A stretch of 64,000 nt of DNA from assembly GCA_000004985.1 (NCBI GenBank), contig GG738880.1; one strand, 5' to 3'. Below the pieces are notes generated by a model, which was not told where the DNA came from, did no database searches, and saw only the letters and a list, made by a program, of their open reading frames with translations. This DNA is from Naegleria gruberi (lineage: Eukaryota). A program made the position numbers and the translations under genes. Shown in pieces: positions 20,515 through 48,363 of the stretch (its first letter is position 1; the number at the start of each line of letters is the position of its first letter).

Positions 20515-21222
20515 TTAGAGAGTAAGCATGATAATTGTGGAAATAGAAATGAGGATTATGTTCAACACTTGATCAGAGAATGAAGAAGGTGCAGAGTTGA
20601 CTGTTTTTGTGGAGTTTCTTCCTGCAATTACTAGTGATTTAACATATGGATTTTCATTGTTGAAATTTCCAACTGGGAAATAATTACACACAACGATGGT
20701 TCCATTGCTGAATTGGGAAAATCCTGGGACTGTGGCACATTTCTTTCTTGCACAACCTACCTTCTTGGTATTTTCCCAGATCAATTGAGTGTACTGTCCA
20801 CAAACGTGTCCTGATTGGCAACTTGTAGGATAAGTGAAATATTGAGATTCATCAGCCCAACTCTTGACACTTCCTGGAACTATATCTGAAAATCCAATGT
20901 ATAAATTCTCTCCTACAGAACCTTTCCTATAATTATCAGAATGTTCAAAAAGACACTTGTCAACATAACTGGCAGCAACCTTTTCCAATTCATCATCCCA
21001 AACTAAACCTCCCATGCTTGCTGCTGGAGGATTTAATGTCTTACTCAAACGAATTGTATTTTGAGCATCAAGCAAGGCAATCTTCTCAGCTGATGTGAAT
21101 GCATTGAGAGAATTTGTGCTTGTTGAATTATTGCTAACAGTTCCATTATTGACATTGGTACTATTATTGGTGTTAGTGGAATTGTTGACTTGGAGTACCT
21201 TGAATGTAAGGTTTTTGACCAT
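20515..21222 (-). CDS. CAP/SCP/PR-1 domain protein with N-glycan-rich linker and GPI-anchor-like C-terminus (CAP1); N-terminus unresolved
   Basis: CAP signature: WDDELEKVAASYVDKC...HSDNY...GENLY...CGQYTQLIWENTKKVGCARKKC...VVCNYFPVGN. C-terminal hydrophobic tail ILISISTIIMLTL. The first in-frame ATG (MVKN, 21222) has no signal peptide and overlaps the last exon of the upstream CAP gene in another frame. It may instead be the second domain of a tandem-CAP protein. Confidence 0.45.
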   Translation of the reverse strand: MVKNLTFKVLQVNNSTNTNNSTNVNNGTVSNNSTSTNSLNAFTSAEKIALLDAQNTIRLSKTLNPPAASMGGLVWDDELEKVAASYVDKCLFEHSDNYRKGSVGENLYIGFSDIVPGSVKSWADESQYFTYPTSCQSGHVCGQYTQLIWENTKKVGCARKKCATVPGFSQFSNGTIVVCNYFPVGNFNNENPYVKSLVIAGRNSTKTVNSAPSSFSDQVLNIILISISTIIMLTL

Positions 21223-21845
21223 TATAATTTCCTCCTGGAAAATAATCACAAACGACTATAGTTTACGAAAATAGTGCTCTTAATCGGCAAGAAGTGTTAA
21301 AACTTACCAATAGTTCCTCCATTGAAATTAGATTCAAGATTAGTAAATGTTGAACAGGTCTTTTTGGCACAACCAACTTTCTTTGTGGTTGCCCAAACTA
21401 ATTGAGTATAATGTCCACAAACCTTACCACTTTGGCAAGTATTGGTTGTATAGTCAAAGAATTGAGATTCATCAGCCCAACCCTTCACACTTCCTGAAAC
21501 CATATCTGAAAATCCAACGTACATATTCTCTCCTACATATCCTTGTCCATAATCATTGGTTCTTTCAGCATTATGGGCCCAAATACATTTATCAACATAA
21601 TTGGCAGCAACTTGAGCCAAGGCTTCATCCCACACCAATGTTTCCATATTGGAGGATGATGGATTAACATTCAATCGAACATTATTATGTTTATCAACAA
21701 GTGATTGTTTTTCTGATGCTTGGAAGGCATTAAGCGTTTGTCCGTAAATTCTTGTGAGCATTAAATTCATCAGCATCATCATCATGAAGAACATTACTAA
21801 AGTGACGATGCTGCTTGAAATCCGAGAGGGTGATTCTATCATCAT
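21173..21845 (-). CDS. Secreted CAP/SCP/PR-1 domain protein (CAP2), 2 exons
   Basis: Exon 1 is 21308..21845 (ATG MMIESPSRISSSIVTLVMFFMMMMLMNLMLTRIYG is a signal peptide; the track M at 21956 is TTG). Intron 21256..21307 (GTAAGT...CTATAG, 52 bp, phase 1). Exon 2 is 21173..21255, giving ...FNGGTI|VVCDYFPGGNYNGQKPYIQGTPSQQFH*. CAP motifs present: GENMY, CGHYTQLVW, KKVGCAKKTC. Confidence 0.6.
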
Positions 21846-22067
21846 CAGTGTTAGAAGTTGCTTTAAGTGTTTTCTTTTGTGCTCATCTTGGAGAAGGTCT
21901 TGAGGTTTTTGTTTGTGTTGATCCACATTTGTTCTTGATTGCCTTAATAGAAACAAGTAGACTTAATGTGGTTATCCGTATGGTAATCTGCAATGGGTTG
22001 TTGAAATAAACAAATTTCTAATCAGGATGATATTGAGTTGCATAAACATGTTCCAGTTACAGCTTGT

Positions 22068-23617: not shown

Positions 23618-24956
23618 TTAACCCTTCACACAAACAATTTGTTTAAGGGTATACAAAATATCTACAAGATCCTTTTGACTTTCCATCACTGCATCAATAT
23701 CCTTGTAAGCTTCTGGTATTTCGTCTAGAACTCCTTCGTCCTTTCTACATTCGACATCTTTGGTTTGTGCCCTTAAATCTTGAACGGTGAAGGTCTTTTT
23801 GGCTTGTCCTCGTGATAGTTTTCTTCCAGCTCCATGTGAACATGAACAATAGCTGTCTGCATTGCCCTTTCCAATAACTATATAAGATTTCTTTCCCATT
23901 GAACCTGGAATAATTCCCAACTCGCCCTTTTTTGCAGATACAGCTCCCTTACGTGTAATGTACAAATCTTCTCCAAAGTGATTTTCTAATTGAGCATAGT
24001 TATGGTGACAATTGACTGCTACGAGATCTGCTTTGAAATTTGGATCTGCCACTTGTCCTCCTCTTCTCAAAGATTTAATCACTTCCTCCATCATTATTTT
24101 TCTATTGAATTTTGCAAAGTCAGACGCCCAATTTAATGCAAACCAATATTCATCAAAATAGTTAGTTCCCTTAGTGAGATAGGCCAAATCTTGATTTCCA
24201 TTTGGCAGGTAACCATATGTTTTTAACATATCTTCCTTTGCCAGATCAATAAACACACGTCCAATCATATTTCCAACGCCTCTTGATCCAGAATGTAACA
24301 TAATCCAAACCTGGTCTGTTTCATCGAGGCAAATTTCTATAAAATGATTTCCTCCTCCCAAGGTTCCCAAGTGGTTAATATGATTTGATTCTTCAATGCT
24401 ATCTCTATAGGATTGCTTGATATCTTTAAAGTTTAATATTCTTTCAAAACCATTGTGTAGTTGAGTATCCCAAAGGTCAACAACAGAATTTGGCATATTT
24501 CCCTTTTCATGTTTTCCAAATCCGACTGGGATGACCTTCTCAATGCTATTTCTGATACTTGCGAGCGATTTCAAATCAGTGGCCTTTAAACTTGTCTTGA
24601 CTGCACACATTCCACATCCAATGTCCACTCCAACTGCTGCAGGAATAAGGGCTGTTTTTGTGGGAATAACTGTGCCCACTGTACAACCTTTGCCCATGTG
24701 AACATCGGGCATGACAGCAATGTGTCCATGAATGATTCCTTTTTAAGAATTAGATTTGCAAAACGTAAAATTGGTAAGAACACGTACCCGAATTTCTCAC
24801 TCCAATTAATTGCTTCTTGGCTTCCTCCTCGATAGGTTCCACCTTTGATGTCCAATATTTAGCTTCTGCAAAATTGAATTTTGATTGGCTTGTAGAGAAG
24901 CATCTCAATCCCCTTGTTGATTGGTTCAGAAAATTCTTTAGAAGTAGTATTGACAT
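23618..24956 (-). CDS. rtcB: RtcB RNA 3'-phosphate ligase, bacterial (E. coli) type, with N-terminal presequence-like extension, 2 exons
   Basis: Exon 1 is 24788..24956 (ATG MSILLLKNFLNQSTRGLRCFSTSQ... then AEAKYWTSKVEPIEEEAKKQLIGV). Intron 24739..24787 (GTACGT...TTAAAAAG, 49 bp, phase 1). Exon 2 is 23618..24738. Splicing gives ...RNSG|IIHGHIAVMPDVHMGKGCTVGTVIPTKTALIPAAVGVDIGCGM. Metal-site motifs NHLGTLGGGNHFIE, HSGSRGVG, NCHHNY and SCSHGAGR are present. The MPDVH(L/M)GKG...GVDIGCGM pattern is characteristic of the E. coli-type RtcB clade; eukaryotic HSPC117 has MPDAHWGYG instead. Confidence 0.8.
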
Positions 24957-25060: not shown

Positions 25061-25728
25061 TTACAATTGTTCTTCATAAATGTTTAATTCGACATTGAAC
25101 ATGTCTCCAAATCTAATTACCATTTTGCCTGGTTTGGTGGCTTTTAATTTTACAAAATAGAAAAATTCCACATCATCTCCTTGTAAAATATCCATTGTCG
25201 AATCAGCTTCCTAAATTAGTAAATTGTATTATTTTAAAATAAATAATTAAATAATTATTAATAAATCCTCACCTTTGATAAAACTTCCGAACTAACAATC
25301 ACACAACTTGCCGAATATTCCTGTGATTCATCAAAGTTCGGATTTAAAAAGTCTGAAATTGTATGGCTCTTAAAACTTGATGAAGAATCCTCGAGTTGAG
25401 CAGGTGGTTTTGGCTCTCTAATCTTGTACAAATCTCCCTTTGTATATTTATTTGATGAATAATACACTACAAAATATTTAATAATATTTAAATATATTAT
25501 AATATTACAAAAAATAATATCATCCAATTATGATCATAATTTTACTTCCTGATAATCAATATTATTAAACCTACCATCAATTTCCGATCCAACACTTTTT
25601 ACTATTGAAATTTGTTTAACTTGTTTTCTATTTTCCAAAGCACCTAAAAATACAGCTTCCTTCCTTCTCTTTTCCAATTCCATGTTTTGTTTGGAGAGGG
25701 AGGAGAGATTTGATCGTGATGAGAACAT
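25061..25728 (-). CDS. Hypothetical small protein, 3 exons
   Basis: Exon 1 is 25575..25728 (ATG MFSSRSNLSSLSKQNMELEKRRKEAVFLGALENRKQVKQISIVKSVGSEID). Intron 25467..25574 (GTAGGT...TTTGTAG, phase 1). Exon 2 is 25273..25466 (VYYSSNKYTKGDLYKIREPKPP...SEVLSK). Intron 25212..25272 (GTGAGG...TTTAG, phase 0). Exon 3 is 25061..25211 (EADSTMDILQGDDVEFFYFVKLKATKPGKMVIRFGDMFNVELNIYEEQL*). All phases are consistent; no family assigned. Confidence 0.45.
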
Positions 25729-31246: not shown

Positions 31247-32605
31247 ATGAGAGAAATTATCAATATTCACATTGGTCAAGCCGGTATCCAAGCTGGTGAA
31301 CAAGTCTGGTCCTTGATGTGTGCCGAACATGCAATCAACCAAGATGGTACTCGTAACATTGACTCTACCAATGGCAACTCTGATTGTTCAGTTTTATTCA
31401 GTGAATCTGCTCGTGGTCGTTACGTTCCACGTAATTTGATGGTTGACTTGGAACCATCAGTTGTTGACAGTGTCAGAAATAGTTCTTTCAAGGAATTGTA
31501 TCATCCAGCTCAAATGATTACTGGTCGTGAAGATGCTGCTAATAATTTTGCACGTGGTCATTATACTGTTGGTAAAGACATGTTGGATGTGACTGTTGAC
31601 AGATTGAGAAAGATTGCTGATAATTGTACTTCATTGCAAGGATTCCAAATTTTCCATTCAGTTGGTGGTGGTACTGGTTCTGGATTTGCTTCACTTTTAG
31701 TTGAAAGACTTTCAGTTGAATTCCCAAAGAAATGTAAACTTTCGTATACAGTTTATCCATCTCCTCAATTGGCCACTTCAGTTGTTGAACCATACAATTC
31801 AGTCTTGTCAACTCATTCCTTATTAGAACACAATGATATCTCAGTTGTTTTGGACAACCAAGCCATTTACGATATTTGTAAACAACGTTTAAAGATTGAA
31901 AGAGCAAATTATCGTAATTTAAATCACGTCATTTCTCAAACAGTTTCTGCCATTACCTGCTCATTGAGATTCTCTGGATCATTGAATGTAGATATGAATG
32001 AATATCAAACTAATTTAGTTCCATATCCAAGAATTCATTTCATGTTATCTTCATTGGCTCCAATGATTTCACGTCAAGAAAATTATTATCATGATAATAA
32101 TGTTGCAGAGTTGACTTCATCTGTTTTTGAAGCTGATAATATGATGGCTAAGTGTAATCCAAGAGATGGAAAGTATATTGCTTCTTGTTTGATGTATAGA
32201 GGTGATATTGTTAATAAGGAAGTTACTGATGCTGTCAAAAATGTCAAATCAAAGGCAAATATTCAATTTGTTGATTGGTCTCCATGTGCTTTCAAGATTG
32301 GTGTCAATTCTCAAAAGCCAACTGTTTTGCCAGATTCTGAATTTGCTCAAGTTGACAGATCATGTGCCATGATTTCGAATAACACTGCCATTTCACAAGT
32401 ATTCGAAAGAATGAACGACAAGTTTGATTTACTTTATGCTAAACGTGCCTATGTCCATCACTTTGTTTCTGAAGGTATGGAAGAAGGTGAATTTGCTGAA
32501 GCTCGTGAAGATTTGGCTGCCTTGGAAAAGGATTATACTGAACTTGCTTCCAATTCAGTTGCTGAAGAAGATTCCATGTTGGATGAAGGTGAAACTTTGA
32601 ACTAA
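31247..32605 (+). CDS. Alpha-tubulin (divergent), single exon
   Basis: 452 aa. [21 protein letters not shown]...[23 protein letters not shown]..., with a C-terminal acidic tail [16 protein letters not shown]-binding motifs are conserved. Confidence 0.9.
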
Positions 32606-32992
32606 ATGTTTTTCTAACACAAATGTTGGACAAGAAATTTAATATTTAAATTAGGTTTTAAATATCAACTTGTTCAAATAATTAAAACAAATAAATTATT
32701 TAACTTATTCAATATTCACTCTCTATTATGCCTACCGATTATAGTTAAACTCGCAAGCGTAGCAAGAAAATTATTACTAAACTACTTTCAAGTGGTGGTG
32801 GATGTGTTTAAGGAGGAGATTGATATGGTCGTAGCGAAATTTCCATTCAGGGGGTGAAGTCAGATTCTGAAATTGAATTTTTAATGAGAAATGGATGCTG
32901 GTAAGACATGACACAAAATCTTTTCCAACCCAGCTTACGTGGTACCAAAGCTTTTTGTTACTTTGGGAGTATACATTTATTATGAATGTGAA

Positions 32993-33815
32993 GCGTCGAT
33001 GGTTTAGTGGTAGAATACGGCGTTGCCATCGCCGTGACCCGGGTTCAATTCATTTTGATAGTATGAATTATTGTGATTGTGTTTCAATTTGGGAATTTCA
33101 TTTCCCGTTCTCCAACTCTATGTAGGATTTTACTTTTATTAATATTAATTCTTTTTGTTCAAATTTGTGTGCGTCGACCAATTATCAAATTGTCAACATA
33201 CTAGTACATGTATTAAAATCCGTTACCCGATGGTTAATATTCAATTTGTTTATTATGTGTCAATTTCCGTTACCCGATGGTTAATGTTCTATGTTAATTT
33301 TGTAATATAATGTTTTGAACTGTTTCATCATGTAATGTGTTAATTCAAAGTTTGTGAACATCATCAATGAATAAATAATAAATTTTATTGTGATGACTCC
33401 CAATTAGGAAATTCCGTTTCCCTATACCCAATCATCAATATCTTTAATATTACATTATCAAAATTAATGTGTGAAATACATTTAAATAATAATAATTTAA
33501 AAAACATTGTATTAATTCAATTTCAAAATTGAATTCAATTTCCACATTAGGTAATTCCATAACCCGTTACCTAACTTCCAACTTTTATTTCCAACTTTCC
33601 AATATTTCCAACATTCAATGAAAGAACAACATTCAATGAAAAATTGAAGAACAATTCAACATGATGTTTCACATCATGAATTAAAAATAATGAACAGAAT
33701 TCAACGTGATGTTTCACATCATGAATAATAATAAAATACAACATTCATATTTCCATCATAAAATTAAAAGTTAAATGATTCCAAAAAAAGGAAATTTCAA
33801 TTCCCGGTCGACGCA
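32993..33815 (+). tRNA. tRNA-Gly(GCC) gene split in the T-loop by a roughly 750-bp insertion (probable pseudogene)
   Basis: The 5' part at 32993..33051 (GCGTCGATGGTTTAGTGGTAGAATACGGCGTTGCCATCGCCGTGACCCGGGTTCAATTC) folds as acceptor, D, anticodon (GCC) and the 5' side of the T-arm. The 3' part at 33804..33815 (CCGGTCGACGCA) completes the T-stem and acceptor exactly. The 8-bp TTCAATTC is present at both junctions (33044..33051 and 33796..33803). Confidence 0.6.
33052..33803. mobile_element. Non-coding insertion within tRNA-Gly flanked by 8-bp direct duplication TTCAATTC; internally repetitive (non-autonomous element, hAT-like MITE?)
   Basis: No ORF. Repeated about 20-bp subunits GGRAATTYCNTTNCCCGTT near 33098, 33409, 33549 and 33789. 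Tandem copies of TCCGTTACCCGATGGTTAAT (33219 and 33266). Two copies of a 26-bp unit containing the perfect palindrome CATGATG-TTTCA-CATCATG (about 33655..33730). A degenerate inverted copy of the tRNA 3' end (TGCGTCGACCAATTATCAA) sits at about 33170..33190. Confidence 0.4.
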
Positions 33816-48191: not shown

Positions 48192-48290
48192 TTTTTTTGA
48201 ATATTTATCAAATAAGAAATAGTCAACTGGAAAGCTTATGGAATCAGTTGTTCAAGTGAGTGATTAATTGTTCTGCAATCGTGTTGTAAT

Positions 48291-48363
48291 CCCCCTTAGC
48301 TCAGTCGGTAGAGCGTCAGACTGTTAATCTGCAGGTCGGTGGTTCGAGCCCACCAGGGGGAGT
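48291..48363 (+). tRNA. tRNA-Asn (anticodon GTT)
   Basis: TCCCCCT TA GCTCAGTCGGTAGAGC G TCAGA CTGTTAA TCTGC AGGTC GGTGG TTCGAGC CCACC AGGGGGA G. A 7-bp acceptor stem, canonical D-arm, anticodon loop CTGTTAA, T-arm GGTGG/CCACC with TTCGAGC loop, and discriminator G. Confidence 0.75.

Follow-up and report, generated by a model that had tools for sequence, protein, structure and literature searches.

The 64,000-nucleotide stretch of Naegleria gruberi DNA analysed here (hereafter the window; NCBI GenBank assembly GCA_000004985.1, contig GG738880.1) carries on its minus strand, at positions 23618..24956, a gene for an RtcB RNA ligase that resembles the enzyme of Escherichia coli, built from two exons and one intron and encoding a protein of 429 residues (Table 1). 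An original prediction, made from the letters of the window, had placed the gene at these coordinates and on this strand with a 49-bp GT-AG intron, and this model was confirmed: start codon, stop codon and splice sites define an open reading frame (ORF) of 1290 nt with 429 codons, and the spliced product is identical to the public N. gruberi protein EFC42397.1/XP_002675141.1 (UniProt D2VLJ2, NAEGRDRAFT_69798), so the public annotation uses the same intron. Eight codons upstream of the ATG the same frame contains a TGA, and the next in-frame ATG encodes Met66, within the conserved MPDVH motif; translation must therefore begin at 24956. The conserved stretch HIAVMPDVHMGKGCTVGTVIPT occupies residues 62–83 and GVDIGCGM residues 93–100.

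Table 1 Coordinates of the RtcB gene and its parts in the window.
Feature	Position	Strand	Description
Exon 1	24788..24956	(-)	169 nt; codons 1–56 and first base of Gly57; ATG at 24956
Intron	24739..24787	(-)	49 nt, phase 1, GT-AG; CTAAT branch-like motif 13 nt before the AG
Exon 2	23618..24738	(-)	Remainder of Gly57 to Gly429 and TAA (23618..23620); entire catalytic core
Presequence-like N-terminal extension	24882..24956	(-)	Residues 1–25, MSILLLKNFLNQSTRGLRCFSTSQS
His358 codon	23834..23836	(-)	Equivalent of E. coli His337 by alignment; within invariant SCSHGAGR motif
Asp95–Cys98 (D-I-G-C) codons	24614..24625	(-)	Equivalent of E. coli Asp75/Cys78; invariant in 17/17 aligned sequences

Evidence for the intron

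The intron reads GTACGTG...CTAAT...AAAAAG (its 49 nt run GTACGTG...TCTAATTCTTAAAAAG). If it is left in place, the frame meets a stop 12 codons into the intron region, after NSGTCSYQFYVLQI. Homology to bacterial RtcB spans the junction: residues 30–56 from exon 1 (AKYWTSKVEPIEEEAKKQLIGVRNS) align with E. coli residues 11–36, the alignment resumes in exon 2 (IIHGHIAVMPDVH against IFKHIAVMPDVH in E. coli), and removal of the intron restores both the frame and the homology. We compared the locus with genomic contigs L001 and L004 of a closely related Naegleria from run ERR1078381, in which the coding sequence differs at 12 of 430 codons and exon 1 is conserved (contig L004). There the intron is 53 nt long, with a 4-nt insertion and three substitutions but identical GT and AG ends. 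A length difference of this kind breaks the frame and is tolerated only in non-coding sequence, so that the intron evolves as non-coding. By this genomic comparison, together with the NCBI gene model, 24739..24787 is a spliceosomal intron.

Three further observations concern introns and haplotypes at this locus. The two related contigs represent slightly different haplotypes or strains within one environmental data set, with amino-acid substitutions that differ relative to the window. The gene upstream of RtcB has a comparable 62-nt intron of its own (GT...ACTAAT...TTTAG, 25211..25272, minus strand), removal of which restores that gene's frame; this lends further support to the RtcB intron. 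The annotated N. lovaniensis RtcB (C9374_004658) has an extra segment, LSEYSKTWSHHSPLP, exactly opposite the N. gruberi intron (alignment columns ~88–104) and without the conserved I-x-H-x-H motif; it looks like an intron that was translated through in the gene model.

A bacterial-type ligase in a eukaryotic genome

The protein matches the Pfam family PF01139 (RtcB) with 409.6 bits against a cut-off of 27 bits (E = 2.5e-122, residues 49–429, profile positions 1–426 of 426), and a match of this significance over the whole model means that the assignment to RtcB is not due to chance. In alignment with the E. coli enzyme, D75, C78, N167, H168, H185 and R189 correspond to identical residues D95, C98, N187, H188, H205 and R209, and H280/281, K299, H337, R341 and R345 to H301/302, K320, H358, R362 and R366. 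E. coli H337, the counterpart of H358, is the histidine that accepts GMP, and the remaining residues are active-site or metal-binding positions, with Asp75 and Cys78 at the metal site; these roles were reportedly established by mutagenesis in the Shuman laboratory and by structures of the Pyrococcus horikoshii enzyme. An AlphaFold (AF2) model of the Naegleria protein reached a predicted template modelling (pTM) score of 0.78, and its top 16 Foldseek hits were all RtcB/RTCB structures (E 4.6e-22 to 8e-17), with template modelling (TM) scores of 0.71–0.74 to P. horikoshii and human RTCB. Over residues 26–429, seven synonymous and two non-synonymous differences separate the gene from that of the related strain, an excess that indicates purifying selection. 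The product is thus an intact RtcB, maintained by selection and very probably active.

Pfam family, fold and the active-site histidines and cysteine are common to this protein, to human RTCB/HSPC117 and to P. horikoshii RtcB. Unlike HSPC117-type proteins, it lacks the insertions that bring them to ~480–505 residues, being 429 residues long with its leader included, and does not belong to that subgroup. Its identity to the E. coli enzyme is 55% over 410 residues (E = 1e-156) versus 26% to human RTCB (E = 3e-33, with 74 gap positions, 17% gaps); both reference sequences were checked against databases. Chains of archaeal, human and Thermus RtcB in the PDB matched at E-values of 4e-27 to 1e-22 only. 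The best matches overall were N. lovaniensis (65% identity), Willaertia magna (61%) and eight proteins from environmental data (59–64%), followed mainly by bacterial RtcB at 55–60%, with Legionella first among the named ones; all named non-eukaryotic top matches were bacterial RtcB proteins of 396–412 residues in this same range of identity. Likeness to E. coli RtcB (RtcB1, P46850, the ligase of the rtcBA operon) extends to similar length, end-to-end alignment that includes the C-terminal ...LKQIVCVKG, conserved catalytic and metal-binding residues and, presumably, sealing of 3'-phosphate to 5'-hydroxyl ends with GTP and Mn2+. Unlike its E. coli counterpart, the Naegleria gene is nuclear, interrupted by an intron, extended by a leader of ~20–25 residues and without an rtcA/rtcR operon.

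A neighbour-joining (NJ) tree was built from 223 sequences with 100 bootstraps and rooted on human RTCB; kinetoplastid and diplonemid sequences were not included. N. gruberi and N. lovaniensis grouped with 94% bootstrap support, within an 11-sequence eukaryotic clade (Naegleria, Willaertia and environmental proteins) that received 100% support and was nested among bacterial sequences, far from human RTCB. This nesting implies bacterial ancestry by gene transfer. A published maximum-likelihood (ML) tree of 1,183 RtcB sequences agrees with the placement among bacterial RtcB1 (BMC Genomics 2025, PMC12699882). Identity, top matches and tree thus support the original prediction in assigning the protein to the E. 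coli clade, outside the HSPC117 clade, and in reading it as a horizontally acquired enzyme of RNA repair or ligation. We do not claim Legionella as the donor: it provides the best named bacterial matches, but the grouping has only 28% bootstrap support and an AT-rich amino-acid composition is shared.

The motif on which the original prediction had leaned fared less well. Its string for the archaeal and eukaryotic type, MPDAHWGYG, does not occur in exactly that form in human (LPDVHSGYG), Pyrococcus (MPDGHQGYG) or Thermus (MPDIHWGYG), and the G-K-G versus G-Y-G distinction was rejected as a clade marker, as the position varies among close relatives of the E. coli type (HCGIG, HYGIG or HWGIG). 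Identity and tree, not this unreliable signature, place the protein.

The eight environmental proteins (P0004–P0011, from metagenomes and Logan) that fall into the fully supported clade were all called as single uninterrupted ORFs, and seven of them carry leaders, the N-terminal region of P0009 being shorter. P0004 (L002 8001..9320, ENA scaffold GROS21-1 scaffold_844) adjoins genes for a P5-ATPase and Piezo and is therefore eukaryotic, so that the eight derive from uncultured amoeba-like eukaryotes. An E. coli-type RtcB is also present in the amoebozoan Cavostelium apophysatum (P0078, EukProt EP01114 transcript), its N-terminus again long, basic and devoid of acidic residues. Its identity is 67% to bacterial proteins of the E. 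coli type versus 59% to Naegleria RtcB, and it lies outside the Naegleria clade in the NJ tree, a hint that suggests a separate bacterial acquisition, also with a presequence-like leader.

Inteins appear to be common in the E. coli-type clade, judging by the large insertions that split many close representatives at ~50% identity (545–766 residues, two matched stretches each). The best NCBIfam match of the Naegleria protein, NF052663, is a model for intein-containing RtcB, of which only the extein part was matched, far below the cut-off; the Naegleria gene has no intein.

Closest non-eukaryotic relatives that are bacterial, among them Legionella, which lives inside amoebae, would also be found if the locus were a bacterial contaminant, a recent unexpressed insertion or a pseudogene. 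For seven of the ten long ORFs in the window there is an identical N. gruberi NEG-M protein, each encoded on the same 416,450-bp scaffold; the seven include alpha-tubulin (31247..32605) and the immediate downstream neighbour of RtcB (EFC42396.1); an ABC transporter, two CAP-domain genes and a giant EGF-repeat protein are further neighbours. Set between Naegleria genes in this way, the RtcB gene has a spliceosomal intron and a host-like GC content (38%, against 34% for the window), forms a fully supported clade with orthologues in N. lovaniensis and Willaertia, and is no more than ~60% identical to any bacterial protein found. Its frame is intact, its catalytic residues are conserved and synonymous changes outnumber non-synonymous ones. 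We consequently reject contamination, recent insertion and pseudogene as vanishingly improbable, on the strength of the Naegleria flanks, the intron and the intact, selected frame; with its flanking ORFs, its exact match to EFC42397.1 and an intron that differs in length by a frame-breaking amount, the gene is as genuinely eukaryotic as had been predicted. That a functional bacterial-type RtcB is encoded here in a eukaryotic nuclear gene we regard as almost certain.

The rtcBA/rtcR operon context of bacteria is missing, the neighbours being eukaryotic genes; its absence is what a move into a eukaryote would lead one to expect, and membership of the protein family does not require it. Only 104 nt separate the stop of the upstream neighbour (gene end 25061) from the RtcB ATG, and the RtcB promoter and 5' untranslated region (UTR) must therefore be very short. 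Elsewhere in the window, two tandem genes with CAP (cysteine-rich secretory protein) domains lie at 20515..21956 on the minus strand, just downstream of the RtcB neighbour. The alpha-tubulin gene (plus strand) is intronless, and its product clusters at ≥90% identity with N. pringsheimi alpha-6 tubulin. ARAGORN called tRNA-Gly(GCC) at 32992..33063 and tRNA-Asn(GTT) at 48290..48362, both on the plus strand; of these two, an Rfam scan at the gathering threshold recovered tRNA-Asn only.

The N-terminal leader and the proposed role

Exon 1 encodes 56 residues, of which the first ~19–25 are additional to bacterial RtcB and residues ~30–56 align with the bacterial N-terminus (K-x-W-T...E-x-x-A-x-x-Q). 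The original prediction had described a first exon that adds about 25 residues; an extra stretch of roughly that length, basic and free of acidic residues, is indeed present, but the exon is longer and its remainder belongs to the conserved protein. Residues 1–25 comprise three basic and seven Ser/Thr residues and none that are acidic, and the first 30 (MSILLLKNFLNQSTRGLRCFSTSQSKFNFA) four basic, eight Ser/Thr and again no acidic ones. The first acidic residue is E31, and the maximum helical hydrophobic moment is high (0.74), in keeping with an ability to fold as an amphipathic helix. In the AF2 model, residues 2–12 form a helix, with predicted local distance difference test (pLDDT) scores <50 for residues 1–9 and 12–31. 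The motif R-C-F/S-T resembles an R-3 processing site and may mark one. A signal peptide was rejected by eye, the hydrophobic run ILLL being only four residues long.

The same type of N-terminus recurs among eukaryotic relatives. There are 65 residues before MPDVH in N. gruberi and 54–87 in Cavostelium and the members of the Naegleria clade with a complete N-terminus, versus 43–49 in bacterial homologues, most of which have an acidic residue within the first 10; in the eukaryotic leaders the first acidic residue is at position 16–42 (at least 24 in all but one). Acid-free extensions are common to N. gruberi, N. lovaniensis and Willaertia magna (ABK040_002136). Unlike the rest of these orthologous proteins, the leaders cannot be aligned between species, yet many have an aromatic-Ser/Thr-Ser/Thr motif (RCF-ST, ISF-ST, KF-ST, FF-SS, YF-SS), which may correspond to an R-3/R-2 processing site. 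The related strain differs at five amino acids, three of them within residues 1–22, where every change is to Ser or Thr. Unusual basic N-termini also occur in other E. coli-type RtcBs: P0016 and P0018 (Logan, 410 residues) have a leader-like start, and P0074 (Logan, 435 residues) begins MGKNRKKRKNRKRRKEKRD, which is more like a nuclear localisation signal. In composition and in recurrence across eukaryotic orthologues, the presequence-like character that had been proposed for the N-terminus is borne out as a feature of the sequence: the leader behaves as would be expected of a mitochondrial presequence, which is not proof of import.

From this N-terminus we consider a mitochondrial location probable, with moderate confidence. 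It agrees with what has been predicted in print for the majority of the clade and with the reported matrix location of Trypanosoma brucei RtcB. In the diplonemid mitoproteome study, Naegleria RtcB was placed in 'clade 1' alongside E. coli RtcB1, Myxococcus xanthus RtcB1, kinetoplastid RtcB (including that of T. brucei) and diplonemid RTCB1 (including that of Diplonema papillatum); a bacterial origin was proposed, the gene having been acquired by a common ancestor, most RTCB1-related proteins were predicted to be mitochondrial and T. brucei RtcB was reported in the matrix (PMC12699882). The basic, hydroxylated, acid-free leader of ~20–25 residues would most likely serve as a mitochondrial presequence and be cleaved near RCF/ST, and the mature enzyme would act in the matrix, resealing mitochondrial tRNA or rRNA cut by endonucleases. 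By the chemistry of the family, it would use GTP and Mn2+ to guanylylate His358 and, after opening of a 2',3'-cyclic phosphate, pass the GMP to the RNA 3'-phosphate; a 5'-OH end would then attack the resulting RNA(3')pp(5')G and seal the break. Taken as a whole, the proposal of a functional bacterial-type RtcB, encoded in the nucleus and resealing RNA in the mitochondrial matrix, is in our view the likely one, though well short of assured.

Several points weigh against this proposal or some part of it. The bacterial sister group of the eukaryotic clade (the Legionella-containing group, 28% bootstrap) is poorly supported and the deep nodes of the NJ tree are unsupported. The spliced junction rests on genomic and homology evidence. 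The leader was assessed by composition, hydrophobic moment and motif, a hand-made test and not a trained targeting predictor. No RtcA, RtcR, archease or other partner gene was found among the neighbours of RtcB, which leaves no hint of a pathway. XP_002675141 did not appear in the portion consulted of the supplement to the N. gruberi mitochondrial proteome (Horváthová et al., 2021, PMC8134430), and the diplonemid study flags conflicting data on localisation in T. brucei ('but see also [127]'; PMC12699882). That study's supplement files, as far as they were searched, yielded no per-protein localisation call for Naegleria.

Some of these points would fit an enzyme that works in the cytosol or nucleus as a general RNA-repair ligase, its extension being a non-targeting tail or conferring partial or dual targeting. 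N. gruberi has 13 classical RNA ligases besides two RtcBs, which Unciuleac and Shuman read as specialisation in RNA repair in general (PMC4408790), reports on the T. brucei homologue are not unanimous (PMC12699882), and the protein is missing from the consulted part of the mitochondrial proteome table. All named or eukaryote-like homologues whose N-terminus is complete nevertheless have an acid-free, basic, hydroxylated leader, which bacterial homologues lack, and such a pattern, recurrent in composition but variable in sequence, is typical of targeting peptides that selection maintains for their composition. The in-frame stops leave the leader ATG as the obligatory start of translation, and most members of the clade are predicted to be mitochondrial (PMC12699882). 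We treat a cytosolic or nuclear enzyme as a possible but doubtful alternative to the mitochondrial one.

A role as the ligase of tRNA splicing or of HAC1/XBP1-type splicing, the job of animal HSPC117/RTCB, would be compatible with the chemistry, since E. coli RtcB is able to splice both tRNA and HAC1 in yeast cells that express it (PMC4931112). The second RtcB of N. gruberi, EFC45815.1, is a more natural candidate for such work, and the protein studied here shares only 26% identity with human RTCB. T. brucei, whose RtcB belongs to clade 1, relies for tRNA splicing on Trl1 and not on RtcB, the role of which is not established there (PMC12699882, PMC4931112), and a presequence-like leader argues against splicing in nucleus or cytosol. 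A splicing role for the Naegleria enzyme is accordingly very unlikely.

Within the mitochondrial reading, the ligase might have a dedicated, constitutive job in RNA processing, joining or re-joining pieces of tRNA or rRNA, and not only one in stress repair. The model for this would be diplonemid RTCB1, for which a dedicated job in joining fragmented mitochondrial transcripts has been proposed; nothing comparable is known from Naegleria, and we rate the extension as unlikely. Equally speculative is its corollary that the presequence-bearing copies of Heterolobosea and Cavostelium represent repeated recruitment of bacterial RtcB to mitochondria.

Relation to earlier work and significance

The interpretation is already published in outline. 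EFC42397.1 and EFC45815.1 were listed as the two RtcB ligases of N. gruberi, beside its 13 classical RNA ligases (Unciuleac & Shuman, RNA 2015, PMC4408790); affinity to E. coli RtcB1, the inferred gene transfer and the prediction that the clade is mostly mitochondrial come from the diplonemid study (PMC12699882), and a 2026 review restates the view that RTCB was transferred horizontally more than once. Added here are the comparative proof of the intron, the recurrence of the leader across a eukaryotic clade with 100% support and a hint that Cavostelium acquired its copy separately.

The gene shows cleanly how a eukaryote has domesticated a bacterial enzyme of RNA repair, in the course of which it gained an intron and a targeting-type leader, and it adds further detail to the unusually large RNA-ligase repertoire of Naegleria. 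If the enzyme is mitochondrial, it would point to joining of 3'-phosphate and 5'-OH RNA ends as a normal mitochondrial activity in Discoba and in some amoebae.

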